Below are positions 1 to 58,526 of a stretch of DNA of 64,000 bases, one piece after another; the stretch's first letter is position 1, and each line of letters opens with the position of its first letter. This DNA is from Auanema rhodensis (lineage: Eukaryota; Animalia; Nematoda): the NCBI GenBank assembly GCA_964057225.1, contig OZ059898.1, forward strand, positions 10,292,001 to 10,356,000, in the 5' to 3' direction. The notes under the pieces are model-generated. The model did no database searches. It was not told the origin of the DNA and saw only the letters and a list, made by a program, of their open reading frames with translations. Position numbers and translations under genes: made by a program.

Positions 1-197
1 AAAATATGGTAACAGTTTTTATTAAAAGTTTCCATGATTAAGATTAAACAAAGAAAAAAAATCAAAGAGAAACACTTCTTGTTTACTAATTTGATTATAA
101 CACTTGAAAATCCAACAAAAGTAAAATAAAACTGTAAAAGCGAGTAAAACTGTTGAAATAAAACAGTTTTTATTAAATATAAATGATATTTTTTTAT

Positions 198-202
198 AAA
201 AA
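198..202 (-). terminator. Pol III oligo-T terminator (T5) of the first tRNA; an equivalent T5 or T4 follows nearly every copy
   Basis: Minus strand reads tRNA-ACTTCATTTTT; most central copies read ACTTCACTTTT. Confidence 0.7.
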
Positions 203-208
203 TGAAGT

Positions 209-279
209 TGCATCGGCCGGGAATCGAACCCGGGTCGCCCGCGTGGCAGGCGAGCATTCTACCACTGAACCACCGATGC
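209..279 (-). tRNA. tRNA-Gly(GCC)
   Basis: Reverse complement GCATCGGTGGTTCAGTGGTAGAATGCTCGCCTGCCACGCGGGCGACCCGGGTTCGATTCCCGGCCGATGCA: 7-bp acceptor stem, A box, GCC anticodon, GGTTCGATTCC B box, no encoded CCA. Confidence 0.97.
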
Positions 280-1067
280 TTGTTAGATTGTTTCCGAAAA
301 ATTATGAAAAGTCAAGTTCTACTGATTTGAAGAAAATTGTAAGTTTTAGAAAATAATTAAAAATAAGTTCTCTCTACTATTAACTGATTGTCGGCTAAAA
401 TATGGTAACAGTTTTCATGAAAAGTTTCCATGATTAGGATTAAACAAAAAAAAGAATTAAAAAGAAACACTTTTTGTTTACTTATTTGATTATAATACTT
501 GAAATTCCAAAAACAGTAGAATAAAATTGAGAAATCGACAAAAACAGTTGAACAATTTGAAGACAATTGTAAGTTGAAGAAAAAAATTAAAGTTTAGCTC
601 TCTCTACTATTTAATGATTGTCGGCTGAAATATGGTGACAGTTTTTTATTAAAAGTTTCCATGATTAAGATTAAACAAAGAAAAAAAATCAAAGAGAAAC
701 ACTTCTTATTTACTTACTTGATTATAATACTTGAAATTCCAAAAACAGTAAAATAAAATAGAGAAAGCGACGAAAAAAGTTGAACAATTTGAAGACAATT
801 GTAAGTTGAAGAAAAAAATTAAAGTTTAGCTCTCTCTACTATTTAATGATTGTCGGCTAAAATATGGTAACAGTTTTTATTAAAAGTTTCCATGATTAAG
901 ATTGAACAAAGAAAAAAAAATCAAAGAGAAACACTTCTTGTTTACTAATTTGATTATAACACTTGAAAATCCAACAAAAGTAAAATAAAACTGTAAAAGC
1001 GAGTAAAACTGTTGAAATAAAACAGTTTTTATTAAATATAAATGATATTTTTTTATAAAAATGAAGT

Positions 1068-1138
1068 TGCATCGGCCGGGAATCGAACCCGGGTCGCCCG
1101 CGTGGCAGGCGAGCATTCTACCACTGAACCACCGATGC
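1068..1138 (-). tRNA. tRNA-Gly(GCC)
   Basis: Identical 71-nt copy. Confidence 0.97.
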
Positions 1139-1926
1139 TTGTTAGATTGTTTCCGAAAAATTATGAAAAGTCAAGTTCTACTGATTTGAAGAGAATTGTA
1201 AGTTTTAGAAAAGAATTAAAGTTCAGCTATCTCTACTATTAACTGATTATCGGCTAAAATAAGGTAACAGTTTTTATTAAAAGTTTCCATGATTAAGATT
1301 AAACAAAGAAAAAAAATCAAAGAGAAACACTTCTTGTTTACTTATTTGATTATAATACTTGAAATTCGAAAAAAAGTAAAAAACAATTGAGAAAGCGACA
1401 TAAACAGTTGAACGATTTGAAGAGAATTGTAAGTTTTAGAAAAGAATTGAAGTTTAGCTTTGTCTACTATTAACTGATTATCGGCTGAAATATGGTGACA
1501 GTTTTTTTTTAAAAGTTTCCATGATTAAGATTAATCAAAGAAAAAAAATCAAAGAGAAACACTTCTTGTTTACTAATTTGATTATAACACTTGAAATTCC
1601 AACAAAAGTAAAGTAAAACTGTTAAAGCGAGTAAAACTGTTGAAGAATTTGAAGACAATTGTAAGTTGAAGAATAAAATTAAAGTTTAGCTCTCTCTACT
1701 ATTAACTGAATGTCGGCTAAAATATGGTAACAGTTTTTATTAAAAGTTTCCATGATTAAGATTAAACAAAGAAAAAAAATCAAAGAGAAACACTTCTTGT
1801 TTACTAATTTGATTATAACACTTGAAAATCCAACAAAAGTAAAATAAAACTGTAAAAGCGAGTAAAACTGTTGAAATAAAACAGTTTTTATTAAATATAA
1901 ATGATATTTTTTTATAAAAATGAAGT

Positions 1927-1997
1927 TGCATCGGCCGGGAATCGAACCCGGGTCGCCCGCGTGGCAGGCGAGCATTCTACCACTGAACCACCGATGC
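1927..1997 (-). tRNA. tRNA-Gly(GCC)
   Basis: Identical 71-nt copy. Confidence 0.97.
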
Positions 1998-2785
1998 TTG
2001 TTAGATTGTTTCCGAAAAATTATGAAAAGTCAAGTTCTACTGATTTGAAGAAAATTGTAAGTTTTAGAAAATAATTAAAAATAAGTTCTCTCTACTATTA
2101 ACTGATTGTCGGCTAAAATATGGTAACAGTTTTCATGAAAAGTTTCCATGATTAGGATTAAACAAAAAAAAGAATTAAAAAGAAACACTTCTTGTTTACT
2201 TACTTGATTATACTACTTGAAATTCGAAAAAAAGTAAAAAACAATTGAGAAAGCGACATAAACAGTTGAACGATTTGAAGAGAATTGTAAGTTTAAGAAA
2301 AGATTTAAAGTTTAGCTTTGTCTACTATTTAATGATTGTCGGCTGAAATATGGTGACAGTTTTTTATTAAAAGTTTCCATGATTAAGATTAAACAAAGAA
2401 AAAAAATCAAAGAGAAACACTTCTTATTTACTTACTTGATTATAATACTTGAAATTCCAAAAACAGTAAAATAAAATAGAGAAAGCGACGAAAAAAGTTG
2501 AACAATTTGAAGACAATTGTAAGTTGAAGAAAAAAATTAAAGTTTAGCTCTCTCTACTATTTAATGATTGTCGGCTAAAATATGGTAACAGTTTTTATTA
2601 AAAGTTTCCATGATTAAGATTGAACAAAGAAAAAAAAATCAAAGAGAAACACTTCTTGTTTACTAATTTGATTATAACACTTGAAAATCCAACAAAAGTA
2701 AAATAAAACTGTAAAAGCGAGTAAAACTGTTGAAATAAAACAGTTTTTATTAAATATAAATGATATTTTTTTATAAAAATGAAGT

Positions 2786-2856
2786 TGCATCGGCCGGGAA
2801 TCGAACCCGGGTCGCCCGCGTGGCAGGCGAGCATTCTACCACTGAACCACCGATGC
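2786..2856 (-). tRNA. tRNA-Gly(GCC)
   Basis: Identical 71-nt copy. Confidence 0.97.
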
Positions 2857-3645
2857 TTGTTAGATTGTTTCCGAAAAATTATGAAAAGTCAAGTTCTACT
2901 GATTTGAAGAGAATTGTAAGTTTTAGAAAAGAATTAAAGTTCAGCTATCTCTACTATTAACTGATTATCGGCTAAAATAAGGTAACAGTTTTTATTAAAA
3001 GTTTCCATGATTAAGATTAAACAAAGAAAAAAAATCAAAGAGAAACACTTCTTGTTTACTTATTTGATTATAATACTTGAAATTCGAAAAAAAGTAAAAA
3101 ACAATTGAGAAAGCGACATAAACAGTTGAACGATTTGAAGAGAATTGTAAGTTTTAGAAAAGAATTGAAGTTTAGCTTTGTCTACTATTAACTGATTATC
3201 GGCTGAAATATGGTGACAGTTTTTTTTTAAAAGTTTCCATGATTAAGATTAATCAAAGAAAAAAAAATCAAAGAGAAACACTTCTTGTTTACTAATTTGA
3301 TTATAACACTTGAAATTCCAACAAAAGTAAAGTAAAACTGTTAAAGCGAGTAAAACTGTTGAACAATTTGAAGACAATTGTAAGTTGAAGAATAAAATTA
3401 AAGTTTAGCTCTCTCTACTATTAACTGAATGTCGGCTAAAATATGGTAACAGTTTTTATTAAAAGTTTCCATGATTAAGATTAAACAAAGAAAAAAAATC
3501 AAAGAGAAACACTTCTTGTTTACTAATTTGATTATAACACTTGAAAATCCAACAAAAGTAAAATAAAACTGTAAAAGCGAGTAAAACTGTTGAAATAAAA
3601 CAGTTTTTATTAAATATAAATGATATTTTTTTATAAAAATGAAGT

Positions 3646-3716
3646 TGCATCGGCCGGGAATCGAACCCGGGTCGCCCGCGTGGCAGGCGAGCATTCTACC
3701 ACTGAACCACCGATGC
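3646..3716 (-). tRNA. tRNA-Gly(GCC), 5' flank replaced by the gypsy 3' LTR
   Basis: Identical 71-nt copy; LTR begins 3 nt upstream of G1. Confidence 0.97.
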
Positions 3717-3719
3717 TTG
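3716..3719. repeat. Target-site duplication CTTG (left copy)
   Basis: Empty site in neighbouring units is gatgcttgttag; the filled site reads gatg-CTTG-[element]-CTTG-ttag. Confidence 0.85.
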
Positions 3720-4085
3720 CGTTCCATTATGCTCCTACGTATATTGAACAGACCATTGTAGTCTGCTCAACTACGCGTATAGTATTCCATAAGTGTAGCG
3801 GTATGGAAACAGAGCATAAGGATTACATAAGATAAGGAAATATATAGGTTTATTATACACAATACAATATCATTACAATACATTAACACAAGGATAAAGT
3901 AAACTACATTTACAAGACAAAGACTAATATATAAGATTAACTAAGTTAGATGCAAACCGTCCATGGGCTTGCAAAGGGGCGAACTCCCGAATAGGGGCAT
4001 GAGGGAAGGCGGTGCCATTCCTCATTCCTCTAGTCGGTCTGGCTCTAACCCTGCAGTTACATATATAGAGTCTCCGAATGGAACG
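3720..4085 (-). repeat. 3' LTR (366 bp)
   Basis: cgttccatt...aatggaacg, matches 15426-15791; 9-bp terminal inverted repeat; AATAAA on the minus strand at 3849-3854. Confidence 0.96.
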
Positions 4086-4087
4086 TG

Positions 4088-4096
4088 CCCTTTTTC
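4088..4096 (-). promoter_or_regulatory. Polypurine tract
   Basis: Minus strand GAAAAAGGG, then CA, then the 3' LTR. Confidence 0.75.
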
Positions 4097-4790
4097 AAAG
4101 ATTGTCGCGACCTCGCGATATTTTAAACAAAAATTTGGGCTTATATGTAACTGAGTTTTAGAGTTCAATTGTTTTAGCTTCACAATAACTATAGTATGAT
4201 AGAGTTTTAGTTAGTATACAAACAAAATTACAATAATTTATAAGAAGGGTTCAATATAATATGAAGGGACGATGAATTAGAATATTATTAATTTCATAAA
4301 TTAATTATCTTAATATTCAAGCATTTCCTAATAGAGATTGTAGAATAAAGGGGCTAGTAATGAATGGGAATATGTTATTATTTTGACTAATGGTCTCAAG
4401 AAGTACTCATTTCTAAATTGAACCGAGATTATGATTTAATAATGTGTCTCCATATGTCTCCCAGAGTGAATCCTTGATTACTAATGGAGACTACCACTTA
4501 AGATGAAATTGTGGTTGATACGCCTACCAGTGTTCATCTCATCTTATTTGGAGAGGCACATGGAGCTCGGATGGTTGTCAAAATGTCCTCTAGTCCGCAT
4601 AGGATTACGGTAACTTGGAACCATTAGTCATAACATCTCCTCGTTTAGAATTTGCCTTATTTTTCCTTTCTCAATCTCTATTAAATGCTATTTTTATTTT
4701 GAATGTTATTTAGCATTAATTTTTTTTTTTTTTTTTTAATTCATCGTTATTTTGTTACAATAATTTAAATAACGTAGCATTATCTTGTTG

Positions 4791-7700
4791 TTATTCTTCT
4801 TCATTCCTCGGAAGCCATATTTCGTCTTCATTTTCATCTTCTGGCTCTGTATCTATGCTATCCTTGTTGTTCCTGTTGATCACTTCTATTATTTCGATGT
4901 CGCTATCTTCTTCTGCTTGACTTTCTCGAAACCTTGCGCGAGTGTTGTAAGAGATGTTTTGTGAAGCAGGAGAGAAGATTTTCAAGTTATCTTTGTGGAT
5001 ATCTTGTAGTTTTCCTGATGAATTTCTGATTTGAACTTTTGATCCTTCTACGTTGATGACTTCGCATGGTCCATCATAGCTTTTCCGAAGCTTTTGGCCG
5101 ATTTGGTGTGATTTTATAGTCGTCATCACCATGTCGCCCGGTTGAATGTCTCTATGGTGTGCTCTTTGCGTTCTATCTTTCTTCTTTTTCGCATTTTCTT
5201 GATTTTTAGCTATGCGGTTCTTTATTATTTCGTCTCTCTTGTCCATATCTGGTCTTCTTTGGAGTAATTCTTCAGAAATTTCTTGAATTTTGGTGATCGT
5301 TTCTGGTAATTCAGCGTCCATTGACATTCTGCATTCTTTACCGAATAATGCAATGTATGGCGCAATCCCTGTAGTCGCGTGCTGAATATTGTTAATAGCA
5401 AAAGTGATTTTTGGTAATACAGTATCCCAGTCACTAAGGTCCTCTTTTAAGTAGTGGGTTAATCCTTCTTCGAGGGTTCGGTGAAGTCTTTCCACTTGTC
5501 CATTTGAGTTCTTTTGGTGTGGTAGTGTTGGTTCATGTTTGATTCCAAGTTTAGTACACATTTCTTCGAACTTTTTAGATACAAAGTTTGAACCTCTATC
5601 GGTGATCAAGCGATGGGGTGGTCCAAAAATGTAAACGAAATGTCTTAGAAATCGATCAATTGTGATTTCCGTTGTTATTTGTGGTACAGCAATTGTTGTT
5701 GACCATTTTGTAAATGCGTCTTGCATGGTAATGACGTAGGTACAGTTTCTTTTTGAAGGGGGAAATGGTCCCATTACGTCCATGTGGACTCGTTCAAATG
5801 GCTTGCTTGGTATCTCAAAATGACCTATTGGTTGTACCGTCATGGAATGTGGATCTTTTTTTCTTTGAGCACATTTAATGCAGTTCTTGATGAATATAGT
5901 AATGTCGTTCTGCATATTTGTCCAATAGAATCTTCTTAGAATTGCTTCTTTTGTTTTAATAATTCCTTGATGTGCTGCAATTGTAGGATCCTCATGAAAA
6001 ACTTTGATTATTTCCTCAATTATGGGGTGTTCTTGTGGTATTACGATAGCGGGTTGTGGCTTTTTGTCTGTTGGTTTTGTATAGAGCAAGTCATTTATGA
6101 CACAATATCTGTCATTAGCTGTCATGTTCTTTTGTGCTCTATATTCAATCTCCGCTATCGTCCGTTTAATCCAAGGGGTGCTTAGTTGAATTTCCTTTAT
6201 TGTTGGTGTATTTATGGCGTTAATGTGAATTTCTTCCATTTTCTTCTTCTTTGTTTCCGGCTTAGCATCGTTAGCTTCTTCACCTATATATCGAGATAGA
6301 GCATCGCATACTTTATTTAATTGGCCTGCGCGATATTTTATTTCAATATCATATTCTTGGATGACCAGCTGGAACTTCGCAAGACGACCAAATAAGTCTC
6401 TGCGTGTCATTAAGCTGGTAAGAGGTCGATGGTCCGTAATACATATAGTATGAGTTCCAAGAATGTATGTACGGAATTGATTTAATGCATATACAAGGCC
6501 TAATGCTTCTATCTCGATTGGTGCGTAGTTACGTTCGGCTTTAACTAGTTTTCTGCTTGCAAATGCGATAGGGTGTAGATTTTTCAGAGGTTGTTTTGGA
6601 TCTTCCGGTTGTAATAATACAGCACCTATGGCGATGTTACTACCGTCGCTTTCAACTATAAACAAGCGGTCCGATTTAGGTGGGCTTAAAACGGGTGCCT
6701 GTATTAAACTTCTTTTAAGGAGGTCTAAAGCTTCTTGATGTTTGTTTTCCCATTTGAATTCAGTATCTGCCTTTGTCAGATCGTATAAAGGGCTTGCGAT
6801 ACGTGCAAAATCTTTCATGAATTTGCGAAAGAATCCAACCATTCCCAAGAATGCTCGTACACCTGTTGCATTCTTTGGTGCCGGATAATCTTGTATGGCG
6901 GCGACTTTTTGAGGGTCAGGTTTTATACCTTGACGTCCTACAATAAGTCCTAGAAATTTCACTTCTGGTTGAGCAAAAGCGCATTTCTTAAGCTTTATCT
7001 TCATTCCCAATTCTTCTACTGCTTGCAGTAAATCATCGATATCTTTGAGATGTTGTTCTCTTGTATCAGATATAACTAATAGATCGTCCAAATAAACAAA
7101 TAGTTTACAAGAACATTTACTTTGCAAATACCTTACTGCTGTTTGAAAGGTATGAGGGGCTCCACAAAGGCCCATCGGCATCCGTTTGTACTGGTATGTG
7201 CCGGATGTGGTCGTAAATGCTGTTAGTGGTCGATCTGATTTTCTCAAGGATATTTGAAAAAATCCTGACACTAAATCGAAGTTTGAGAAAAATTGGGCGC
7301 CTGCTGCCAAATCAACTATGTCAGAAATGCTTGGAATGACATAAGTTTGCTTGCGTGTGACATTATTTAAAGCTCGAAAATCTGTCACAAACCTATACGT
7401 GTCATCTTTCTTCTTAACTAGTACTACAGGGCTATTAAATAGAGATGTAGAAGGCTCTATTATGCCTTGCTCAAGCATTTCTTTGACTTGTTTTTCAATT
7501 TCTTCCTGTTTTCCTAAGGGAATACGTGTTATTCTCGGCTTTGGCATATCCATATCTGTTCTCAATGGTATGGTATGCTCTATAGGACCTTTAAATAAGC
7601 CTATTTTCCTGTCCTCGTTAAGAAATGCCTCACGATGGCTTTCAATTATTTTTGTAAGCTCATGTTTTTCTTCTTTCGTGAGATCAGCATTCTCTAGATC

Positions 7701-8470
7701 AAGATCTTTTATGAAGTCTCTTGGAAAATATGGTAGTTTACTCTCCCAATCGGCCTCTGGCGGAACATATGGTAGAATTGGCTTATGCTTAAAGGGTTCA
7801 CAAGCCGGAATTTCTCCAATTATTGCCTGTCCGATGACTGAATTAGCTTCCATAGCTATTGTTTCATCGGTATTGTTACGGAACATAACATATACTCCAC
7901 TGGTATCACGAAACGCAGTTGGATATAATGATTTTAATGCGCTTCCACTATCCCCTAAGACAACCACTTCGTTAGATTCTAGTGGTTTATCTGTCTTTAT
8001 TGGGATAGGTGCCTCTTCATCAGGCTTTAATGTTTTTGTTCTTAAATTAATGATATTCACAGTTATCTCCGTATGCTTAATAGATTCGTTTCCTATTAAT
8101 GGGATGGCATTGTTTCCAATCTCCAACCTCTTCTTGGATGGTTTAAGGCTGACGTCGATGTTTTCGCTGTCAAGCGCTTTCATGAAATCTAGTCCAATTA
8201 AAGCGGGAGCAGGACAGTCATGATCGTTTGAGACCAAAAAGGTGTGTTCGATCTCGTAACCGGCAATTTCAATTACAAGATTTATCTTTCCATAAAATGT
8301 GAAAGTGGACTTGTTGGCTGCCATCGCTACTAAATGTCTCTTCTTGACATTTTCGGCCATGTTCAGATATTTGAGGGTGGAGAGCCTAACATATGACACT
8401 GATGAGCCTGAATCCCATAAAGCTAAAATCAGTTTATCTTCAACTGATATATATATTAATGGTAACTTTG
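4791..8470 (-). other. pol: Pol region: aspartic protease, reverse transcriptase, RNase H, integrase
   Basis: DSG, SPVVLVKKKD..YRFVTDFRALN, DLVSGFFQI, MPMGL, YLDD, RAFLGMVGFFRKF, integrase core. Confidence 0.97.
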
Positions 8471-11400
8471 TTTCCGCTGATACAATAGAAGCAACAAATG
8501 GTATTGCGATTGGAATAAATGTTACTAAAGCAGGATAGTATTGCTTCATGATGTTATCTGGCATCTGTTGGTCTGGGCGGCTTACAAGTTCCAATGTTTC
8601 TTCATAGCTTGGGGGCTCATTATCTATTTCGTGGACATGCATTACGGTTAGTGGAGTGGCTCTGAAGAACCAAAATTTAGCAACAACGAAAAGAATTATT
8701 AATACTGCGGCAATCGTAACCATTGATCCTATGAAGATGAGTGTTCTCTCAATTGATCCTATTAGAAATTGCTTTACGCTAGTCCAGGCGGAAGTTGTGA
8801 ACTCAGCTGCTTTAGAGATATAGTCACTGCCCTTTTTCAAAAGATTAAAGGCGGACGTAATTTTTGGATCGTTGTGAATAGTATGTAAAACATGGTTCTG
8901 TCGTATGGATGCTAAACTTGCTCCATATGCAATAGCTGTTGACATTGAGTAAACTCTCAATGATAAATTGGTGTATAAGTTAGCGCCTGTGAACTTTAAA
9001 GGTGTTAATTGGTGGTATTGCGCTTTATCAAAGAGTGATATTGGTTTTACTTCAACCGATCCATTTATATTTATCCATTCTCCATTTTGATAGTATACAT
9101 CTGTGGGTACATGTTCGCAATCTATCTCTTTTCCATGTGTTAATAAGTCTCTTGATCCTGGAGCAGCAAAATATAATCTCTCATCTTCTGTTATTACTGG
9201 TGTTTCCAAATAGCATGTATCATTGATCTTATGATTATGATAAACAGCTTTAGGTTGAAGAGGTAGGCATATATGAACATGAACTATATCGCTGCCTACG
9301 AAACGGGCTGCAATATCCTCTCTTCCTAAAATAGTCCTCATTGCTATTGTAGGTTCTATGTGTAAAATAGAACGCCATAGCTCGAGGTATCTATTTTGAA
9401 TCTCACATATGGATTCATAAGATTCCATGAAATGTTTCTGTAGCTCTTCTTGTATGAGTGTTGTTGTATATTGTAGATGATCTTGAGCTATTCTGCGAGA
9501 TACGTTGAGGTTGAATTGTATTTCGTTGTTCACTTTTGACGCTGTATACGTTGCCTGAGCCTGAATTTCTCTGGTTTCTACGGGTGGAGATGATGTTCTT
9601 TGTTTCCTTAAGATTCGTGACGCCGTGTCAGTGACTGTTGCTAATGTTGTTGGCGAGAGAGTCGTAGTTATCGCGGCTGTTGTCGTCTCAACTGTGGTTG
9701 TCGTCGGAATCCGAGTCGTATGGCTTTTAGTTGTCTCCTGAACTAGTGAAGCGGGTTTGTCCGTTGTTGTCGTTAATGACAGTCTTCTAGTCAGATAAGG
9801 CGGTGTTTCAATATCCTCTAACAGTGGTAAAAATGTTTTTATAAGTAGCTGGCGTGTATCTGCGCTTGGGTTTTGAATGCGAGGGTGGGGCCCTATCGAT
9901 ATACCGTAGTTAGAATCTTTATCTCGATATAATTTGTTGGTATCTGGCACATTGATTGTTAATTGTCGGAACTTTTCATCATCTACGGCTGCTGCTGTTT
10001 TATTTGGCCTTATTACTCGCAATGTCATCAAGTTATGGTATAAGTAAAGAGTGTTTCTAAGTACTATACGCTCATCAGCATTGTCAGTTGTTAGAGTTGG
10101 TCGGATCGGCGGCATGTTCACAAAGGATTTTAAAACCTCTTGCCTTGATGGTACCGACAGATTGTTTTCAAATATTACCGGTGTATAAGCTAACTCCATC
10201 GCTATGCTTTCGGCTCTTTCACGGTAGGATCCGTCTTTTTCTAGCAGTTTTTCGTCAAATTCGTGTGCTGTTAATCTGTCACCTATCTGTTCTAATAATT
10301 GTTGTGAGGTTAAATACCGTATAGCGCCGCGAGTGGTTGCTGCCAGTTCCTTTTGCGCAAGAAAATAAAGTATTGCTTCCTCAGGGTCGTGTATTTCGTA
10401 TGTTTGAAGGAAACGTTGTATGGATTTATCAGATACGGGACTTCTTAAGAAGAAATAAAACTTCTCGGGATGTGCTGAAACCCAGTCAATAATTGAATAT
10501 GAAGGGTTGACAGCTCGTCTGGCCTTTATAAGCGGTATTATCTGATAAATACCAGGATTACTCATCACCGGTCGTAAGAAAGGATAAGGACAAATATTTA
10601 ATATTAAAGTTTCAAAATCTTCCTGTTTTTGTATCCACTCCTTGTTTAATTCAACCGTGCATTCCGCAATTGCTCTTTTATCTCTTTTCGCCGGAAGTTT
10701 CTTATATTCTCTCTCTATTAAAACATGGATATTGGTGTCATTTGGGTACTGTGGTAAGAGAATGTAATTGCCAGTTGTGGTGTGGAAGATTGGCTGTTTA
10801 AAACAAGAAGATATTTGCTTCGGTATCTCTTTTTGATCGATTACAAGGGCTGATTGAGTGGTTGGTAACAGAATAATGCCGTCTCCAATTATCACATCAT
10901 ATTCACTCATGTCGATATAGTTGCATCGATATTCATAAGGCTGTTTCTCCCATATGATGATTGAGGTATCTGATGCACATTCTCCATGATGCGCTAAGCA
11001 TCCTTCAGTATTTAGTATTAAATTGGAGATTATAGTTTCATCTGGCATCCGTGTCATAACCCCTCTTTCGATAACCAATCTGGCTTTCTCTTCACATAGT
11101 TCATTATTAAAAGATCGGCCTGGCGAGAAGGAAGGCTCGTCAGTTGCATATGTTATGCTGTCGATCTTCTTTAATTCACTCCAATTCCATCTTCTATCTC
11201 TCACTGCCAGTCTGCATTCTGCAGCTGGTATCTTTTCAATTCTCGCTATCGTTGTATTGGTATCTCTAAGGAACAAAAGGTCTCTGATACACATTTTATG
11301 AATTTCTTTGGAGCATCTCCATGCATCCCATTCATGTGCCGTTTGATTCCTTGTATAAAGATGAACTTTTGTTCGTAAGATATGCTTTATTGGTGGTAAT

Positions 11401-13496
11401 AAGCATTTTCGGAGAGATGGGGGACGGAGAAGGGCTCCTCCAGTAGCTTTAGTACATAGCTGGTATGCTTCAGCTGTTGTAACCAGTGATAAGATTACTG
11501 ATAAAGCTACGGCTAAAGTCAAAGGAGATATCAGAGTCAAATTATTGACTCTTGAGCCTCTACCTCTGCCTCTATTGTTGTTATTTCCCCTAAAGGTACT
11601 GTTATTTCTCTGTCTATTATTGCTCATTTCTTGATTTTGTGATGCATTATGGCTTCTTTGATACCCATTTTGATTTTGATTCTGATAATTTCGACCGCGG
11701 TCACCAAAATTGCGGTTCCTAGCAAATGGGTTTTGGAAATTCCAGCCTTTTTGATTTTTTGAAAATTTATGATAATTTTGATTGTTTTGAAAGTTTGGAT
11801 GATAATTGTTATAATTATTATAATTTTGATAATTTTTATTATTAAAAGATTGATAACCTCTTGCCATACCTCTCCCACCATTGTTTCTGCGCGGGGGGAA
11901 AGTTCTTTCAATTGCGTTAACCAATAGCGCCTGAGGGTCTGCTACTTGGTTTGCAATTGATTCCTCCCAGCGAGCACTATCAACAGCCTCAGCAAAAGTT
12001 TTGGGTTTTGCTCGAATTACCCCTGGGCGTATCGTATTTTTCAAGCCTCTCAAAAATGTGGACCTCAGAATGTGATCTTTATGAGTATCACTATTAGAGA
12101 AAGCATTTAAGCTGAGGTTTCTTAACGTTTGTGCAAAACCATCAATTGATAAATCGCCTTGAGTGCTGTTTTGAAGTGTGATAAGGGCAGGGTCTTGATT
12201 GTATTCGGGACACAGCTTGGATGTTAACTCTTCTATTAGGGTAACCCAAGGTCCAGCAGTTCTGACCTTGTCAGGTAGCTCTAAATAAGCTTCCTCTGCT
12301 CTATCATTTTTCAATAGTAATGGTAAAATAGTTAGTCTTTCGGGCATCACTAAGCCTAAGGCGTTAGAAAAGGTATTAAACTTTGCCACGAAATCTCTAA
12401 AGTTACGACTTCCGTCGTATATGGGGCAATAAGGTGAGCTTAATGCGTGCGCAATGGTAGATTTACCAGCTCCCGGAAGACGTGGTGTCTCCGTCATGGT
12501 TGGTATATCCTCAGGGTATGTGCGAGATGACGTAATCCCTTTACTGCCTGAGCTTCTCGCCGTTAAATTCTTACCTCCCTTTTTCGAGTTACCAGATGTT
12601 GGATAACTAATGGTAGGGGCGGCTGAGGAGAACCGCTTCCCTGGGAGTTTGATAATTCGACTCGTTGCCTGAGGCGTCGAATGTATTGATACGCTTGAGC
12701 TGGGTATAGCGCTATCTGACTTATTAAGGGTTGGGTTGGAGGATACGTGAAGAGAGTTATCAACTTGTTCTGTTGTTACCTCCCCTGGAGACAAATTCAA
12801 AACTTTTATTAAGCGAGCTGTTAAAGATTTCTTACTTTTGAACTTATCAGTAGTTAGTGATAAGGGCAAAACTTCGGTAATTTCCTGATTTGGTTCTACG
12901 GGATTATTAGAGGTTGAGCGCCTACGCGGTGTATTAGTTTTTCTTTTATTAATTTTTTTAGAATCAAGCTTTTTCGAATCAAGCTTATCAGTGATAACTG
13001 ATAAGGGTGATTTGCGAATAGTGAGAGATGAGGTTTTATTAAGTTGTGAGTTTTCTATCGGAGTGGAAAATGCCTGCGGTGTTAGAGTTAGTTCAAAAGA
13101 AGATGCAAGATCGTTATCAGTATTAACTGATAAAGTTGATAAGTTTAGGTGGGGAGTGGCTGGTGAAGTATTAGAGGTTATTTGTTTTGGTTTTTGAATT
13201 TTTTGAATCTTTTTATTACTTTTAAAAGAGTGTACCTTTGGAGTTGAAGCTGAAGTTTGAATATTGTAGTCCTGAATATAGAAATCAGGGTCCTCCTCGG
13301 TGTTGTCCGGAGGTGAATACGTGCCTTCTCGAGGAATGAAGGTTTTCTCGACTTTGGGTTTTACCTCTTGTTCAGGCTCTTCAATCTGAACACTGAGGAG
13401 TCGAGTGCGGCTTCTGGTTCGACTGGCGACTGCGATGTCGTCACTGGACTCAGAAGGGTATAGAGCAGGGACGGCCGAAGAGTATCTTCGTGCCAC
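4791..13496 (-). CDS. Gag-Env-Pol polyprotein (2901 aa as called from GTG; true start uncertain, first ATG at 12497)
   Basis: Gag capsid motifs (YDGSRNF; FLRGLKNTIR; PKTFAEAV), signal peptide plus Cys-rich ectodomain plus TM, protease LWDSGS (8406-8414), RT YLDD (7083-7094), RNase H ESDGS/TDHRPL, integrase H-H-C-C and D,D-E (HMDVMGP, ITDRGSNF, QVERLHRTL). Confidence 0.95.
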   Translation of the reverse strand: MARRYSSAVPALYPSESSDDIAVASRTRSRTRLLSVQIEEPEQEVKPKVEKTFIPREGTYSPPDNTEEDPDFYIQDYNIQTSASTPKVHSFKSNKKIQKIQKPKQITSNTSPATPHLNLSTLSVNTDNDLASSFELTLTPQAFSTPIENSQLNKTSSLTIRKSPLSVITDKLDSKKLDSKKINKRKTNTPRRRSTSNNPVEPNQEITEVLPLSLTTDKFKSKKSLTARLIKVLNLSPGEVTTEQVDNSLHVSSNPTLNKSDSAIPSSSVSIHSTPQATSRIIKLPGKRFSSAAPTISYPTSGNSKKGGKNLTARSSGSKGITSSRTYPEDIPTMTETPRLPGAGKSTIAHALSSPYCPIYDGSRNFRDFVAKFNTFSNALGLVMPERLTILPLLLKNDRAEEAYLELPDKVRTAGPWVTLIEELTSKLCPEYNQDPALITLQNSTQGDLSIDGFAQTLRNLSLNAFSNSDTHKDHILRSTFLRGLKNTIRPGVIRAKPKTFAEAVDSARWEESIANQVADPQALLVNAIERTFPPRRNNGGRGMARGYQSFNNKNYQNYNNYNNYHPNFQNNQNYHKFSKNQKGWNFQNPFARNRNFGDRGRNYQNQNQNGYQRSHNASQNQEMSNNRQRNNSTFRGNNNNRGRGRGSRVNNLTLISPLTLAVALSVILSLVTTAEAYQLCTKATGGALLRPPSLRKCLLPPIKHILRTKVHLYTRNQTAHEWDAWRCSKEIHKMCIRDLLFLRDTNTTIARIEKIPAAECRLAVRDRRWNWSELKKIDSITYATDEPSFSPGRSFNNELCEEKARLVIERGVMTRMPDETIISNLILNTEGCLAHHGECASDTSIIIWEKQPYEYRCNYIDMSEYDVIIGDGIILLPTTQSALVIDQKEIPKQISSCFKQPIFHTTTGNYILLPQYPNDTNIHVLIEREYKKLPAKRDKRAIAECTVELNKEWIQKQEDFETLILNICPYPFLRPVMSNPGIYQIIPLIKARRAVNPSYSIIDWVSAHPEKFYFFLRSPVSDKSIQRFLQTYEIHDPEEAILYFLAQKELAATTRGAIRYLTSQQLLEQIGDRLTAHEFDEKLLEKDGSYRERAESIAMELAYTPVIFENNLSVPSRQEVLKSFVNMPPIRPTLTTDNADERIVLRNTLYLYHNLMTLRVIRPNKTAAAVDDEKFRQLTINVPDTNKLYRDKDSNYGISIGPHPRIQNPSADTRQLLIKTFLPLLEDIETPPYLTRRLSLTTTTDKPASLVQETTKSHTTRIPTTTTVETTTAAITTTLSPTTLATVTDTASRILRKQRTSSPPVETREIQAQATYTASKVNNEIQFNLNVSRRIAQDHLQYTTTLIQEELQKHFMESYESICEIQNRYLELWRSILHIEPTIAMRTILGREDIAARFVGSDIVHVHICLPLQPKAVYHNHKINDTCYLETPVITEDERLYFAAPGSRDLLTHGKEIDCEHVPTDVYYQNGEWININGSVEVKPISLFDKAQYHQLTPLKFTGANLYTNLSLRVYSMSTAIAYGASLASIRQNHVLHTIHNDPKITSAFNLLKKGSDYISKAAEFTTSAWTSVKQFLIGSIERTLIFIGSMVTIAAVLIILFVVAKFWFFRATPLTVMHVHEIDNEPPSYEETLELVSRPDQQMPDNIMKQYYPALVTFIPIAIPFVASIVSAETKLPLIYISVEDKLILALWDSGSSVSYVRLSTLKYLNMAENVKKRHLVAMAANKSTFTFYGKINLVIEIAGYEIEHTFLVSNDHDCPAPALIGLDFMKALDSENIDVSLKPSKKRLEIGNNAIPLIGNESIKHTEITVNIINLRTKTLKPDEEAPIPIKTDKPLESNEVVVLGDSGSALKSLYPTAFRDTSGVYVMFRNNTDETIAMEANSVIGQAIIGEIPACEPFKHKPILPYVPPEADWESKLPYFPRDFIKDLDLENADLTKEEKHELTKIIESHREAFLNEDRKIGLFKGPIEHTIPLRTDMDMPKPRITRIPLGKQEEIEKQVKEMLEQGIIEPSTSLFNSPVVLVKKKDDTYRFVTDFRALNNVTRKQTYVIPSISDIVDLAAGAQFFSNFDLVSGFFQISLRKSDRPLTAFTTTSGTYQYKRMPMGLCGAPHTFQTAVRYLQSKCSCKLFVYLDDLLVISDTREQHLKDIDDLLQAVEELGMKIKLKKCAFAQPEVKFLGLIVGRQGIKPDPQKVAAIQDYPAPKNATGVRAFLGMVGFFRKFMKDFARIASPLYDLTKADTEFKWENKHQEALDLLKRSLIQAPVLSPPKSDRLFIVESDGSNIAIGAVLLQPEDPKQPLKNLHPIAFASRKLVKAERNYAPIEIEALGLVYALNQFRTYILGTHTICITDHRPLTSLMTRRDLFGRLAKFQLVIQEYDIEIKYRAGQLNKVCDALSRYIGEEANDAKPETKKKKMEEIHINAINTPTIKEIQLSTPWIKRTIAEIEYRAQKNMTANDRYCVINDLLYTKPTDKKPQPAIVIPQEHPIIEEIIKVFHEDPTIAAHQGIIKTKEAILRRFYWTNMQNDITIFIKNCIKCAQRKKDPHSMTVQPIGHFEIPSKPFERVHMDVMGPFPPSKRNCTYVITMQDAFTKWSTTIAVPQITTEITIDRFLRHFVYIFGPPHRLITDRGSNFVSKKFEEMCTKLGIKHEPTLPHQKNSNGQVERLHRTLEEGLTHYLKEDLSDWDTVLPKITFAINNIQHATTGIAPYIALFGKECRMSMDAELPETITKIQEISEELLQRRPDMDKRDEIIKNRIAKNQENAKKKKDRTQRAHHRDIQPGDMVMTTIKSHQIGQKLRKSYDGPCEVINVEGSKVQIRNSSGKLQDIHKDNLKIFSPASQNISYNTRARFRESQAEEDSDIEIIEVINRNNKDSIDTEPEDENEDEIWLPRNEEE
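8604..11540 (-). other. env: Envelope-like glycoprotein region (probable class III fusogen, herpes gB/chuvirus G-like)
   Basis: Signal peptide LTLAVALSVILSLVTTAEA/YQLC, spaced Cys, N-glycosylation sequons (NQT, NTT, NWS, NDT, NVS, NGS, NLS), furin site RDKR (10674-10685), motif CEIQN..EPTIAMRTILGREDIAAR..C..CYLETPV..F..RDLL..C, TM at 8679-8741, PPSY. Fold assignment is by recognition, not by search. Confidence 0.8.
11550..12497 (-). other. gag: Gag region (capsid-like domain followed by an N/Q/R/G-rich tail; no CCHC knuckle)
   Basis: Retrotransposon-gag-like residue pattern, then RGMARGYQSFNNKNYQNYNNYNNY...NNNNRGRGRG. Confidence 0.8.
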
Positions 13497-13908
13497 TTTG
13501 GAATCACTCTTGGTTCGGAAAAACCGCGAGTGTTTCGTTATATGGGGGATGTTGACGTTGAATGAGTGACAAGAAATTCGGGTCGGTTATAGGAAAAGTA
13601 AGAAACGTTTGAAGATTGAGACGTGGCGTCTTTCGCCGAGAATCGTTATTAGATGAGAAAGAGTTTTAAAATCTTGGCCTGAGATCTGGCTCCGCCTATC
13701 TACCGTATTCTCTTTTCTTTATTCTATTTCACAGATGTTCATCAATTATAAATTTTTTTGGTCTTCGCTCTTTCTAGCCTCAATCTTAATACTTTACTCT
13801 AATTGAATTCTTGAAAGTATGAGAGAGATTTTCAGTCGTTTTATGTCCCCTTTTTATGCATAAGAATCTTTATATTTGTAGAGCTGAAAAAAAAAAATAA
13901 ATCAAAGA

Positions 13909-14442
13909 ATGGCTTATGAAGGTCTATCGGGAATGACTTTTGTCTTGAGGAAGCTGTACGCTGACCTCGTCTTGTATGATCAAGACGAAGTGTTAGCTTA
14001 TAGGCCGCACCCAGACATAATTAAGATGGTTGGTTAAAACAAAGAAACATGTTATCTTAATAAGAATTTTTAGTTTATTGAGGATTTAAAGATGCATTAT
14101 CTGGGAAGGGGATTAGTAAACTTCTCCCTAATGCAGGAAATAGCGGATGAGGTTGCAGCTATCCGGCGATGGTGCCTCACCGACTTGTGCGCGCATTGGT
14201 ATGAAAACCCAAATCTGGTCGCATCCCCTTGGAATTGGTATGAGCATAAGTCTCATGATTTTTATGATTATATGTCTAAAATTTTGTTTAAAATTTATTT
14301 ATTTTATGAACAGTCTCCTATGGGCTTATTGCTAAGGACCTCTGCGGATTCGGTGTATTCGCAGTATTTAGAGCCTAGCGATGAGCCCATCTCACAGCCT
14401 ATAGAATTTGTGAGACAGTTGCATTTTAAATGGGGCTTTTAA
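13909..14442 (+). CDS. Putative two-exon accessory gene antisense to the element (exons 13909-14028 and 14074-14442; 162 aa; unknown function)
   Basis: 40-codon exon MAYEGLSG...PDIIKM, 45-nt AT-rich intron GTTGGT...TTTTTAG, in-frame join to FIEDLK-MHYLGRG...KWGF*, AATAAA 16 nt after the stop. Confidence 0.65.
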
Positions 14443-14458
14443 CAATTGTTTCATATAT

Positions 14459-14464
14459 AATAAA
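14459..14464 (+). promoter_or_regulatory. Polyadenylation signal of the antisense gene
   Basis: AATAAA followed by a pyrimidine/T-rich tract at 14480-14510. Confidence 0.55.
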
Positions 14465-15412
14465 TACTTAATTTCACTCATTTGTTCTCTCTCTCTTTTT
14501 TTTTTTTTTCCATAACACAAACTTTGGTCGAGCTTATTAATAAAGAAGGAGTGCGTGCGCCTTGGGAAAATGGCTCATGTGCACGTTATTATTAAAAGCC
14601 GTGGGCGATTCTTTTTCGGAATGATTTTGGCATGCTAATGAGATTCCGAGAATATTTAAAAAGATTGCTCATTTTACTAATGGACTGAGACCAAAGCTCG
14701 TTTATAAAACGCAATTTTTTTCTTTAAACCATTCTACTAATTTATAGAATATTACAATATGAATACTACGGTAGGTGTGTGGGAATATCTTATGATGTTA
14801 GCAACAAAAATGAGCTGAGGAAGGTGACACATTCTACGGAGAAGAAAACATCCGTAGCCCATGTGCTTTCGCCAAAATGACCTGACAGGCAATAAAATTT
14901 GTGCCAGGATTTTTCGGACTAGTGTGGTCTATTCTCACAATCAAAAAAAAAATAAAAACCGAATAACGGCTCCCGCAAAAATATTTAGTTAGCATGCTCT
15001 TTTACGCCTGAATTTAACTTTCAAATCTCTAGTCCTGACCACAATAAAATATTAAACTTTGTGCGCTTTCAAAATTTCATTCTAACTCCTCGTTGCCAAA
15101 TAATAATGTAATCAAAATTTCGTTTGGTGAAATTGTCCCCTATTTCGATCCAAACGTCCTCAAAAAAAAATGCAAGAGAAGCGGTGCAGGATACGGTATT
15201 ATAAGGGTGGACACTCAGACGGTTTTATGAGTGGGGACAGCGGGTGAAATTTCAAAATTATGTAGTCCTAGCTCTCTAAAAGAGAGATCCCTTGTACCTG
15301 CACCTTATACAAGTTGGCGCCCTCATTATGTTGCTAACCGTGGAGGAAGTTTTAATTTAGATATCAAAATATGGACTTTTTATGCGAGTTTTTGCGACAA
15401 AAATGAGTTCGA

Positions 15413-15425
15413 GGTGGAACCTCCA
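15413..15425 (-). promoter_or_regulatory. Primer-binding site, tRNA-Gln
   Basis: Minus strand TGGAGGTTCCACC directly after the 5' LTR; complementary to the conserved eukaryotic tRNA-Gln 3' end GGTGGAACCT-CCA. Confidence 0.85.
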
Positions 15426-15791
15426 CGTTCCATTATGCTCCTACGTATATTGAACAGACCATTGTAGTCTGCTCAACTACGCGTATAGTATTCCATAAGT
15501 GTAGCGGTATGGAAACAGAGCATAAGGATTACATAAGATAAGGAAATATATAGGTTTATTATACACAATACAATATCATTACAATACATTAACACAAGGA
15601 TAAAGTAAACTACATTTACAAGACAAAGACTAATATATAAGATTAACTAAGTTAGATGCAAACCGTCCATGGGCTTGCAAAGGGGCGAACTCCCGAATAG
15701 GGGCATGAGGGAAGGCGGTGCCATTCCTCATTCCTCTAGTCGGTCTGGCTCTAACCCTGCAGTTACATATATAGAGTCTCCGAATGGAACG
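15426..15791 (-). repeat. 5' LTR (366 bp)
   Basis: Identical by eye to 3720-4085; followed by the PBS. Confidence 0.96.
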
Positions 15792-15795
15792 CTTG
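15792..15795. repeat. Target-site duplication CTTG (right copy)
   Basis: aatggaacg-CTTG-ttagattg. Confidence 0.85.
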
Positions 15796-16582
15796 TTAGA
15801 TTGTTTCCGAAAAATTATGAAAAGTCAAGTTCTACTGATTTGAAGAAAATTGTAAGTTTTAGAAAATAATTAAAAATAAGTTCTCTCTACTATTAACTGA
15901 TTGTCGGCTAAAATATGGTAACAGTTTTCATGAAAAGTTTCCATGATTAGGATTAAACAAAAAAAAGAATTAAAAAGAAACACTTCTTGTTTACTTACTT
16001 GATTATACTACTTGAAATTCGAAAAAAAGTAAAAAACAATTGAGAAAGCGACATAAACAGTTGAACGATTTGAAGAGAATTGTAAGTTTAAGAAAAGATT
16101 TAAAGTTTAGCTTTGTCTACTATTAACTGATTATCGGCTGAAATATGGTGACAGTTTTTTATTAAAAGTTTCCATGATTAAGATTAAACAAAGAAAAAAA
16201 AATCAAAGAGAAACACTTCTTATTTACTTACTTGATTATAATACTTGAAATTCCAAAAACAGTAAAATAAAACTGTTAAAGCGAGTAAAACTATTGAACG
16301 ATTTGAAGACAATTGTAAGTTGAAGAAAAAAATTAAAGTTTAGCTCTCTCTACTATTTAATGATTGTCGGCTAAAATATGGTAACAGTTTTTATTAAAAG
16401 TTTCCATGATTAAGATTGAACAAAGAAAAAAAAATCAAAGAGAAACACTTCTTGTTTACTAATTTGATTATAACACTTGAAAATCCAACAAAAGTAAAAT
16501 AAAACTGTAAAAGCGAGTAAAACTGTTGAAATAAAACAGTTTTTATCAAATATAAATGATGTTTTTTTATAAAACATGAAGT

Positions 16583-16653
16583 TGCATCGGCCGGGAATCG
16601 AACCCGGGTCGCCCGCGTGGCAGGCGAGCATTCTACCACTGAACCACCGATGC
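16583..16653 (-). tRNA. tRNA-Gly(GCC)
   Basis: Identical 71-nt copy. Confidence 0.97.
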
Positions 16654-17210
16654 TTGTTAGATTGTTTCCGAAAAATTATGAAAAGTCAAGTTCTACTGAT
16701 TTGAAGAGAATTGTAAGTTTTAGAAAAGAATTAAAGTTCAGCTATCTCTACTATTAACTGATTATCGGCTGAAATATGGTGACAGTTTTTTTTTAAAAGT
16801 TTCCATGATTAAGATTAATCAAAGGAAAAAAAATCAAAGAGAAACACTTCTTGTTTACTAATTTGATTATAACACTTGAAATTCCAACAAAAGTAAAGTA
16901 AAACTGTTAAAGCGAGTAAAACTGTTGAACAATTTGAAGACAATTGTAAGTTGAAGAATAAAATTAAAGTTTAGCTCTCTCTACTATTAACTGAATGTCG
17001 GCTAAAATATGGTAACAGTTTTTATTAAAAGTTTCCATGATTAAGATTAAACAAAGAAAAAAAATCAAAGAGAAACACTTCTTGTTTACTAATTTGATTA
17101 TAACACTTGAAATTCCAACAAAATAAAAAAAAACTGTGAAAGCGGGTAAAACTGTTGAACTAAAACAATCTTTATAAAATATAAATGATATTTTTTTATT
17201 AAAGTGATGT

Positions 17211-17281
17211 TGCATCGGCCGGGAATCGAACCCGGGTCGCCCGCGTGGCAGGCGAGCATTCTACCACTGAACCACCGATGC
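17211..17281 (-). tRNA. tRNA-Gly(GCC)
   Basis: Identical 71-nt copy; the proximal T-run is only T3. Confidence 0.96.
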
Positions 17282-17844
17282 TTCGAAAATGTTAGATTGT
17301 TTCCGAAAAATTATGAAAAGTCAAGTTCTACTGATTTGAAGAAAATTGTAAGTTTTAGAAAATAATTAAAAATAAGTTCTCTCTACTATTAACTGATTGT
17401 CGGCTAAAATATGGTAACAGTTTTCATGAAAAGTTTCCATGATTAGGATTAAACAAAAAAAAGAATTAAAAAGAAACACTTCTTGTTTACTTACTTGATT
17501 ATACTACTTGAAATTCGAAAAAAAGTAAAAAACAATTGAGAAAGCGACATAAACAGTTGAACGATTTGAAGAGAATTGTAAGTTTAAGAAAAGATTTAAA
17601 GTTTAGCTTTGTCTACTATTAACTGATTGTCGGCTAAAATATGGTAACAGTTTTTATTAAAAGTTTCCATGATTAAGATTGAACAAAGAAAAAAAAATCA
17701 AAGAGAAACACTTCTTGTTTACTAATTTGATTATAACACTTGAAAATCCAACAAAAGTAAAATAAAACTGTAAAAGCGAGTAAAACTGTTGAAATAAAAC
17801 AGTTTTTATTAAATATAAATGATATTTTTTTATAAAAATGAAGT

Positions 17845-17915
17845 TGCATCGGCCGGGAATCGAACCCGGGTCGCCCGCGTGGCAGGCGAGCATTCTACCA
17901 CTGAACCACCGATGC
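17845..17915 (-). tRNA. tRNA-Gly(GCC)
   Basis: Identical 71-nt copy. Confidence 0.97.
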
Positions 17916-18887
17916 TTCGAAAATGTTAGATTGTTTCCGAAAAATTATGAAAAGTCAAGTTCTACTGATTTGAAGAGAATTGTAAGTTTTAGAAAAGAAT
18001 TAAAGTTCAGCTATCTCTACTATTAACTGATTATCGGCTAAAATAAGGTAACAGTTTTTATTGAAAGTTTCCATGATTAAGATTAAACAAAGAAAGAAAA
18101 TCAATGAGAAACACTTCTTGTTTACTTATTTGATTATAACACTTGAAATTCCAAAAACAGTAGAATAAAATAGAGAAAGCGACGAAAAAAGTTGAACGAT
18201 TTGAAGAGAATTGTAAGTTTTAGAAAAGAATTAAAGTTCAGCTATCTCTACTATTAACTGATTATCGGCTAGAATAAGATAACAGTTTTTATTAAAAGTT
18301 TTCATGATTAGGATTAAACAAGAAAAAGAATCAAAAACACTTCTTGTTTACTTATTTGATTATAATACTTGAAATTCCAAAAACAGTAGAATAAAATAGA
18401 GAAAGCGACGAAAAAAGTTCAACGATTTGAAGAGAATTGTAAGTTTTAGAAAAGAATTAAAGTTCAGCTATCTCTAATATTAACTGATTATCGGCTGAAA
18501 TAAGGTAACAGTTTTTATTAAAGCGAGTAAAACTGTTGAACGATTTGAAGACAATCGGCTAAAATAAGGTAACAGTTTTTATTAAAGCGAGTAAAACTGT
18601 TGAACGATTTGAAGACAATTGTAAGTTGAAGAAAAAAATTAAAGTTTAGCTCTCTCTACTATTTAATGATTGTCGGCTAAAATATGGTAACAGTTTTTAA
18701 TAAAAGTTTCCATGATTAAGATTAAACAAAGAAAAAAAAATCAAAGAGAAACACTTCTTGTTTACTAATTTGATTATAACACTTGAAAATCCAACAAAAG
18801 TAAAATAAAACTGTAAAAGCGAGTAAAACTGTTGAAATAAAACAGTTTTTATTAAATATAAATGATATTTTTTTATAAAAATGAAGT

Positions 18888-18958
18888 TGCATCGGCCGGG
18901 AATCGAACCCGGGTCGCCCGCGTGGCAGGCGAGCATTCTACCACTGAACCACCGATGC
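18888..18958 (-). tRNA. tRNA-Gly(GCC)
   Basis: Identical 71-nt copy. Confidence 0.97.
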
Positions 18959-19752
18959 TTCGAAAATGTTAGATTGTTTCCGAAAAATTATGAAAAGTCA
19001 AGTTCTACTGATTTGAAGAGAATTGTAAGTTTTAGAAAAGAATTAAAGTTCAGCTATCTCTACTATTAACTGATTATCGGCTAAAATAAGGTAACAGTTT
19101 TTATTAAAAGTTTCCATGATTAAGATTAAACAAAGAAAAAAAATCAAAGAGAAACACTTCTTGTTTACTTATTTGATTATAATACTTGAAATTCCAAAAA
19201 CAGTAGAATAAAATAGAGAAAGCGACGAAAAAAGTTGAACGATTTGAAGAGAATTGTAAGTTTTAGAAAAGAATTAAAGTTCAGCTATCTCTACTATTAA
19301 CTGATTATCGGCTTAAATAAGGTAACAGTTTTTATTAAAAGTTTCCATGATTAAGATTAAACAAAGAAAAAAAATTAAAGAAAAACACTTCTTGTTTACT
19401 AATTTGATTATAACACTTGAAATTCCAACAAAAGTAAAGTAAAACTGTTAAAGCGAGTAAAACTGTTGAACGATTTGAAGACAATTGTAAGTTTCAGAAA
19501 AGAATTAAAGTTTAGCTCTCTCTACTATTAACTGAATGTCGGCTGAAATAAGGTAACAGTTTTTATTAAAAGTTTCCATGATTAAGATTAAACAAAGAAA
19601 AAAAATCAAAAAGAAACACTTCTTGTTTACTTACTTGATTATAATACTTGAAATTCAAAAAAAAGTAAAAAACAATTGAGAAAGCGGGTAAAACTGTTGA
19701 ACTAAAACAGTCTTTATAAAATATAAATGATATTTTTTTATAAAAGTGAAGT

Positions 19753-19823
19753 TGCATTGGCCGGGAATCGAACCCGGGTCGCCCGCGTGGCAGGCGAGCA
19801 TTCTACCACTGAACCACCGATGC
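19753..19823 (-). tRNA. tRNA-Gly(GCC), G68A variant
   Basis: Plus strand tgcattggcc instead of tgcatcggcc; C5-A68 acceptor-stem mismatch. Confidence 0.92.
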
Positions 19824-57860: not shown

Positions 57861-57924
57861 TGTCGCGATAAGCGAGTGAGTTTGTATAATTTTTTTATCT
57901 TCAACAATTGTTTTATTTGTTTCT

Positions 57925-58001
<77 letters not shown>

Positions 58002-58245
58002 TTCTTCTAACTTCCTAAGTAATTTTTATCCATACCACATGTTGTGTTATACATGTGGCATGACTAACTCTTTGTTTCAGGCTGACGACCGCCCACGAGA
58101 AGAGATCAGTCTTACATTTTTTAACGTTCGCAGTCAGTGATTCTATTCCGTGCTTGTCTTGTTAATTCATCAATAAACCCTTTTCTACATATTCGCTTTG
58201 TGTTTTATTTCCAACCATACTATACACTTGCGGTATAACGCCACA
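57861..58245 (+). repeat. Predicted 5' LTR of the BEL/Pao element (385 bp)
   Basis: TGTCGCG...CGCCACA imperfect terminal inverted repeat, AATAAA at 58172, PBS 3 nt downstream; the second LTR is outside the window. Confidence 0.8.
57929..57998 (+). repeat. (CT)35 microsatellite inside the BEL LTR
   Basis: Direct reading. Confidence 0.95.
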
Positions 58246-58248
58246 AAT

Positions 58249-58260
58249 TGGTGCATCGGC
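58249..58260 (+). promoter_or_regulatory. Primer-binding site, tRNA-Gly(GCC)
   Basis: TGGTGCATCGGC is the exact complement of GCCGATGCA+CCA, the 3' end of the array tRNA. Confidence 0.9.
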
Positions 58261-58526
58261 TAGTTCAGATCTTAGCCGCTTCAAGTCCCGCGTGGCAGGT
58301 GAGATACAGCTCAAACCAAGCGTGTTTGAGCAAAAAACATACTTAATAGAAATCGTGGCAACCATTAGTCCACGTCAAGTCACACCAAAAAGACTTGAAC
58401 CATAAGCAAACTCTGCAGACAGAAACAGAGATTCACTATCACATATACTGTGATCACCAAACAAACAAAAAAAAAAAAAGAGAAAGTAAAAGGAATATAA
58501 GCATTATTCCTACATCTACGACAAAA

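Follow-up and report, generated by a model that had tools for sequence, protein, structure and literature searches.

In the analyzed window, a 64-kb stretch of the Auanema rhodensis genome, an intact and probably young enveloped Ty3/gypsy element is inserted directly at the 5' end of a tRNA-Gly(GCC) gene, which belongs to a tandem array of 41 such genes. We put at about 0.45 the probability that its integration complex was tethered at this gene by the RNA polymerase III (Pol III) initiation machinery. The broader reading, that a lineage of envelope-bearing nematode errantiviruses integrates at Pol III starts by a chromodomain-free tether and a cut a few bases from the mature tRNA, seems similarly tentative. 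The odds of targeting come out about even because the single site lifts a prior that we judged to be a few per cent (compact-genome family).

The array extends from position 1 to 57860 with all 41 genes on the minus strand and AT-rich repeats of about 232 bp between them, and measures 45,784 bp with the element removed. The target gene (3646-3716, minus strand; ARAGORN, Rfam) is 71 nt long, intact and equipped with A and B boxes, and its sequence is identical in 38 of the 41 genes including the target itself; a G66A exchange in the acceptor stem was noticed in three copies (19753, 23020, 24608). Only two stretches of the window, 3720-15791 and 57861-64000, consist of non-array DNA. Solo LTRs or additional inserts were not seen in the array, and Rfam detected no RNAs other than tRNA within 1-20000. 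The upstream flanks of the tRNAs across 209-57798 fall into a short type, found in six units including the target and confined to the left part, and a long type with 7 additional bp in 35 units. The corresponding indel is located immediately upstream of the gene, which is also the insertion site of the element. A T4 run at -8 to -5 characterizes the long type (35/40 uninterrupted units), and T4 is the sole downstream terminator in 28 of the 41 genes.

The insertion bears the hallmarks of integrase action. It is flanked by a target-site duplication (TSD) with the sequence CTTG at 3716-3719 and 15792-15795 (CAAG on the tRNA strand). The tRNA-side copy covers positions -3 to +1 of the mature tRNA, and the far copy is followed by the sequence that originally flanked the tRNA upstream. 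If the element and one TSD copy are removed, the rebuilt empty site is identical to two of the five compared neighboring units in 131/131 positions and to the remaining three in 130/131. A 5-bp TSD (-3 to +2) with an outer LTR end that is one base shorter is an alternative reading of the junction, but the 4-bp version is favored because the terminal inverted repeat is then perfect over 9 bp. The insertion is located at the 5' side of the tRNA gene, and the element is co-oriented with the tRNA, as ORF, PBS and polypurine tract (PPT) are all on the minus strand. This confirms what the earlier note had read from the junction, namely a 4-bp TSD at -3 to +1, an intact 71-nt gene and co-orientation of both. 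An assembly artefact or a recombination scar was ruled out by the exact reconstruction of the empty site and by the intactness of the two LTR ends. The tRNA as cargo of the element was likewise rejected, as the gene is positioned beyond the LTR and 37 further copies in the array have the same sequence.

The element comprises 12,072 bp (3720-15791, minus strand) and contains two direct LTRs, a PBS, a PPT and the flanking TSD, together with the order PR-RT-RH-IN in pol (Pfam), as expected for Ty3/gypsy. The 3' LTR (3720-4085), whose U5 end now forms the upstream flank of the tRNA, and the 5' LTR (15426-15791) are identical over 366/366 bp, and the repeat extends by 0 bases beyond either side. 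Ty3/gypsy LTRs usually have TG...CA ends, which are common, although not universal. In contrast, the ends found here (3720-3728, 4077-4087, 15424-15434, 15783-15791) are CG...CG, with a 9-bp terminal inverted repeat. A PPT with a CA dinucleotide adjoins the 3' LTR (4086-4096), and a PBS complementary to the 3' end of tRNA-Gln abuts the 5' LTR (15414-15425; both minus strand). A single open frame of 2,931 codons (4791-13586, minus strand) contains an ATG-free stretch of 363 codons followed by gag, env, PR, RT, RNase H and IN. The identical LTRs and the unbroken frame suggest a recent insertion, and we therefore consider the element as likely a young, intact Ty3/gypsy retrotransposon. The 5' LTR is separated from the first Met by 2.9 kb (12498-15425, minus strand), in which the last 363 codons are open without an ATG, and a strong acceptor-like splice site is located near 13889, upstream of the first Met. 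A spliced or trans-spliced product from this region, as with CERV of Cer1, is possible.

All coding regions described in the following are on the minus strand. The gag region, which starts at the first Met (codon 364; 11541-12497), has no Pfam match in the protein of the element and aligns to parts of related proteins that match Retrotrans_gag or Ty3_capsid. Env spans 8658-11540 and consists of a signal-like hydrophobic stretch (11475-11540), a gB-like ectodomain with 16 Cys and 10 sequons (8748-11474) and a transmembrane helix (8658-8747), the first and the last assigned by hydropathy. Pfam matches were obtained with PF24664 (5.7e-15) and with PF00606 (6.4e-9, which is below the curated cut-off of PF00606). 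In a Foldseek search with a model of modest confidence (mean pLDDT 59) the best matches were all herpesvirus gB (E 3e-12, low TM). With its signal-like stretch and transmembrane helix the protein thus corresponds to the HSV/gB type, within the limits set by the low TM and the pLDDT of the model. Pfam further identified an aspartic protease (WDSGS; 8178-8447) and RT (YLDD) with RNase H (6351-7418; PF00078 6e-32, PF17917 2.7e-28). The designation as an enveloped Gypsy element, which also goes back to the earlier note, is thus supported by intact pol domains and a gB-type envelope found with both Pfam and Foldseek. The integrase (4794-6023) is composed of an H2C2 zinc domain, the core, a long helical linker, an SH3-like CTD at about 4974-5132 and an acidic tail of 56 aa; residues 396-452 are acidic and of low confidence in the structure model, in which no chromodomain is predicted.

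The closest named proteins are from the rhabditid nematodes Auanema, Heterorhabditis, Caenorhabditis and Diploscapter, with 53-67% identity in RT-RNase H. A FastTree analysis of 53 RT-RH sequences, from which P0037-P0079 (except P0047), matches covering at most 330 residues and the sequences of PMC13524379 itself were left out, placed the element within the clade of these rhabditid, env-bearing elements (support 0.999) with two Auanema proteins as sisters (support 0.955). Nematode errantiviruses with the order GAG-ENV-POL and an HSV/gB-type Env have already been described (PMC13524379), and the earlier note made no mention of these published envelope-bearing elements of the same layout. According to the available parts of that study, Clat_errantivirus_4 and Ctro_errantivirus_1 share with our element the gag-env-pol order, the gB-type Env, a tRNA-Gln PBS abutting the LTR and LTRs of a few hundred bp. 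In its supplementary file 1 a tRNA-Gln PBS is listed in 8 of 11 Caenorhabditis rows and in 8 of 36 nematode rows, and the PBS of our element is the same as that of the Gln entries Clat_4 and Ctro_1 in 12/12 nt. As judged by the sequence, the element is a new family in this known group, separate from the known members with a best RT-RH identity of 67%. No insertion-site preference of these elements was found in the main text of PMC13524379, in the part available, in which the term 'target site' occurs 0 times. The C-terminal integrase tails of the relatives differ in length and charge.

Further loci were fetched with pol profiles, in total 131, made up of 80 metagenome loci (the best 80 of at least 346 relatives), 2 viral loci and 49 GTDB-contaminant loci. 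None of the 131 had an env match or a tRNA, and the best RT identity was about 43%. These loci represent other lineages, for the most part on short contigs, and are neutral with respect to targeting. Ty3/gypsy elements of eukaryote type are present in many GTDB bacterial MAGs among them (L083-L131), in several cases with full LTRs, which is probably host contamination. Three gene models of named relatives also drew our attention. The model of P0007, a C. nigoni relative with 55% RT-RH identity, continues into the middle of a BEL/Pao integrase core and is fused to this integrase and a phlebovirus-G2 env. The P0008 model is fused to an eEF1A/HBS1-like GTPase gene, and P0020 has doubled protease and zinc domains. 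These gene models hint at nested or gene-proximal insertions, and in the case of P0007 the model suggests a copy nested in a BEL/Pao integrase gene, i.e., at a non-tRNA site.

To judge the position of the insertion we used the empty array as an empirical null. Positions upstream of a tRNA +1 account for 0.36% of the array within 3 bp, 0.99% within 10 bp, 3.1% within 33 bp and 5.9% within 65 bp, so that 0.4-6% of random insertions would land this near, according to how wide a window is accepted. The previous estimate that a 10-bp window at each of the 41 genes covers about 0.9% of a pre-insertion array of about 45.8 kb agrees with these figures. Under a uniform null the position is unusual, in line with the accompanying statement that chance is unlikely, although n=1. 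The 64-kb window contains one copy of the element, which leaves the family-level Pol III targeting and the safe-harbour role put forward in the earlier note as hypotheses, and the case was picked post hoc from a very large scan. In PMC5006619, as far as available, the criterion for targeting is the presence of several copies at a similar distance.

In the preferred reading, with tethering by the Pol III machinery, the polyprotein would be cut by signal peptidase and the element's own protease, tRNA-Gln would prime reverse transcription at the PBS abutting the LTR, and the integrase would join the CG ends with a 4-bp stagger, all as known from the family. TFIIIB or TFIIIC may serve as the docking site of the intasome, at a constant spacing to the A box, and the cut may be made at or beside the start site. 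The insertion would spare the internal A/B promoter as well as the +1 base, and the redundant array would buffer any loss of expression of the target tRNA. Tethering is favored by the small share of array positions within 3 bp of a +1, by an array that is free of inserts apart from the two non-array stretches, and by the long helical CCD-CTD linker and the SH3-like CTD predicted in the integrase model. In Ty3 the SH3 CTD contacts TBP and the chromodomain contacts Brf1 via an extended linker, and linker and CTD are needed to reach TFIIIB, as described in the accessible text of bioRxiv 10.1101/2021.07.27.453949. Ty3 Gag-Pol was the best match of a PDB sequence search, marginally ahead of PFV, and the fold search ranked PFV integrase above Ty3. 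In terms of the model, the integrase is about equally like Ty3 and PFV, and linker and SH3 domain are generic. The missing chromodomain is compatible with targeting, as DGLT-A of D. discoideum targets without one (PMC5006619). As the same element also lacks the extension, the absence weakens the claim that the mechanism is the same as in Ty3, but not that it works like Ty3.

The insertion distance is a larger mismatch with Ty3 than the lack of a chromodomain. Ty3 integrates on the upstream side of the TSS, where its 5-bp TSD is 1-4 bp away; relative to the mature +1 this is about 15 bp upstream. The cut itself is placed 2-3 bp upstream of the TSS, with a 5-nt TSD (bioRxiv 10.1101/2021.07.27.453949, available text). 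Compared with the sites of Ty3 and DGLT-A, the insertion described here is about 10 bp nearer to the gene, and a TSD at -3 to +1 is also closer than the 6-65 bp given for LTR elements in the available parts of PMC5911963 and PMC5006619. The geometry fits Ty3 only if tRNA transcription in the host starts within about 4 nt of +1, and a very short leader would reconcile the mismatch. The T4 run at -8 to -5 may weakly hint at short tRNA leaders in this host; our literature search found no data on leader lengths or start sites of nematode tRNAs. The apparently nested P0007 copy argues against a specific tether, although this rests on a gene model and sister families can differ in targeting, as reported for Pp_DGLT-A.1-3 versus A.4 (PMC5006619, available text).

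A second argument against a specific tether comes from an unrelated BEL/Pao element on the plus strand (57861-64000, Pfam), which runs past the window end and was not mentioned in the earlier note. Its ORF is open from 58527 to the window end and matches Peptidase_A17, DUF1759 and DUF5641. The element begins 63 bp upstream of the last array tRNA and faces away from it. Within 58249-58299 lies its PBS, with complementarity to the 3' terminus of tRNA-Gly(GCC), the array's own tRNA, followed by a 13-nt match to the anticodon arm of the same tRNA (58287-58299), which could possibly represent an extended primer contact. As BEL/Pao is also located just upstream of a tRNA, the zone may be generally accessible for integrases, unless the element merely marks the array end. 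This leads to the most serious alternative, which we rate as somewhat less probable than tethering: a widely inserting element prefers open or bent DNA, such as that bordering an active tRNA gene on its upstream side, and the redundant array tolerates the insertion without any specific tether. Two unrelated LTR superfamilies within 63 bp upstream of a tRNA, with a joint chance of about 0.3% under a uniform null, would be explained in this way, as would the G+C step at the target from 25-30% to 55-70% and the seemingly nested P0007 copy. However, the far end of BEL/Pao is beyond the window and its position may reflect the array edge, and a cut at most 3 bp from +1 is rarely expected from a passive preference.

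It is also conceivable, though rather unlikely, that one untargeted insertion happened to fall beside a gene in a stretch with 41 of them and was noticed for that. A laxer post hoc window, in which genes plus 30 bp of flank on each side are counted, makes up 11.7% of the array, and any such insertion would have drawn notice in a scan of some 250,000 windows. Furthermore, Cer1 of C. elegans is located in the protein-coding gene plg-1 (PMC3315495), and the literature searched contained no report that nematode LTR elements target tRNA genes. On the other hand, just 0.4-1% of positions are as near upstream as the element, and BEL/Pao is upstream-proximal too. Direct recognition of the conserved 5' end or the A box by the integrase, which would suit a duplication overlapping +1 and a cut beside conserved gene sequence and has a parallel in the animal Dada transposons that insert at fixed tRNA-gene sites, is very improbable, as the target flank is mostly spacer, the 10-mer context is present in just 6 of 41 units, CAAG alone is found 434 times across the array, and strict targeting of multicopy genes is described in the available text of PMC3706591 for non-LTR elements and Dada and not for LTR integrases.

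The statement that such targeting is little documented for animal LTR elements is in line with our literature search. All 12 tRNA-adjacent LTR elements listed in Table 1 of PMC5911963 are from yeast or Dictyostelium, the accessible sections of a 2026 review give yeast examples only (PMC13269885), and a search of mostly open literature, with Repbase outside its scope, found no animal or nematode LTR element that targets tRNA genes. The idea that Oikopleura Tor elements target small-RNA genes was not supported by the available text of PMC4402516, and no insertion-target information was found in the accessible parts of PMC7084138 and PMC1858694. Should tethering by the Pol III machinery hold true, Ty3-like targeting would be known for the first time, within the literature searched, from an animal LTR element and also from an enveloped one. 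Pol III tethering would then have evolved in metazoan Ty3/gypsy viruses too, in this case in a potentially infectious element, and tandem tRNA arrays would serve it as safe harbour, a natural case of safe-harbour integration in animal cells. It would also offer a second structural solution for comparison with the Ty3-TFIIIB complex. If targeting fails, the element is still an intact, young representative of a nematode group that was described only recently, and its LTR ends are of an unusual type.

Among the known systems, Cer1 of C. elegans resembles our element as a Ty3/gypsy retrotransposon of a nematode that has a single long ORF and a PBS immediately adjoining the LTR, but it differs by a tRNA-Pro PBS, an extra ORF (CERV) instead of a true env and the insertion in plg-1 (PMC3315495). 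Animal elements in tRNA genes, arrays or spacers are represented by Dada and Dewa of fish, which are not LTR elements, and Dada disrupts the tRNA gene (PMC3706591, available text), whereas the gene is left intact here. The sole known element as near to a tRNA is the non-LTR element Dp_NLTR-A of D. purpureum (2-6 bp). Ty3 of Saccharomyces cerevisiae shares with our element the Ty3/gypsy integrase with SH3 CTD and extended linker, as far as the model goes, and the insertion on the 5' side of an intact tRNA gene. In contrast, Ty3 has a chromodomain, a 5-bp TSD and no env, whereas we found no predicted chromodomain, a 4-bp TSD overlapping +1 and an env, and a yeast host stands against an animal host with n=1. 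DGLT-A of the dictyostelids is likewise a single-ORF Ty3/gypsy element, and in D. discoideum it targets regions upstream of tRNA genes with neither a chromodomain nor a C-terminal IN extension (PMC5006619). It differs in its distance of 10-65 bp upstream across families, the lack of env, the evidence from multiple copies and, in D. discoideum, the insertion in either orientation to the tRNA, whereas the element described here is co-oriented. According to the available texts, the known tRNA-targeting LTR elements, a class that comprises Ty3, DGLT-A and Tj1, likewise spare the gene, targeting was gained or lost among sister families of DGLT-A, and tRNA targeting has repeatedly arisen in compact genomes among elements of the Ty3/gypsy type (PMC5911963, Table 1; PMC5006619).
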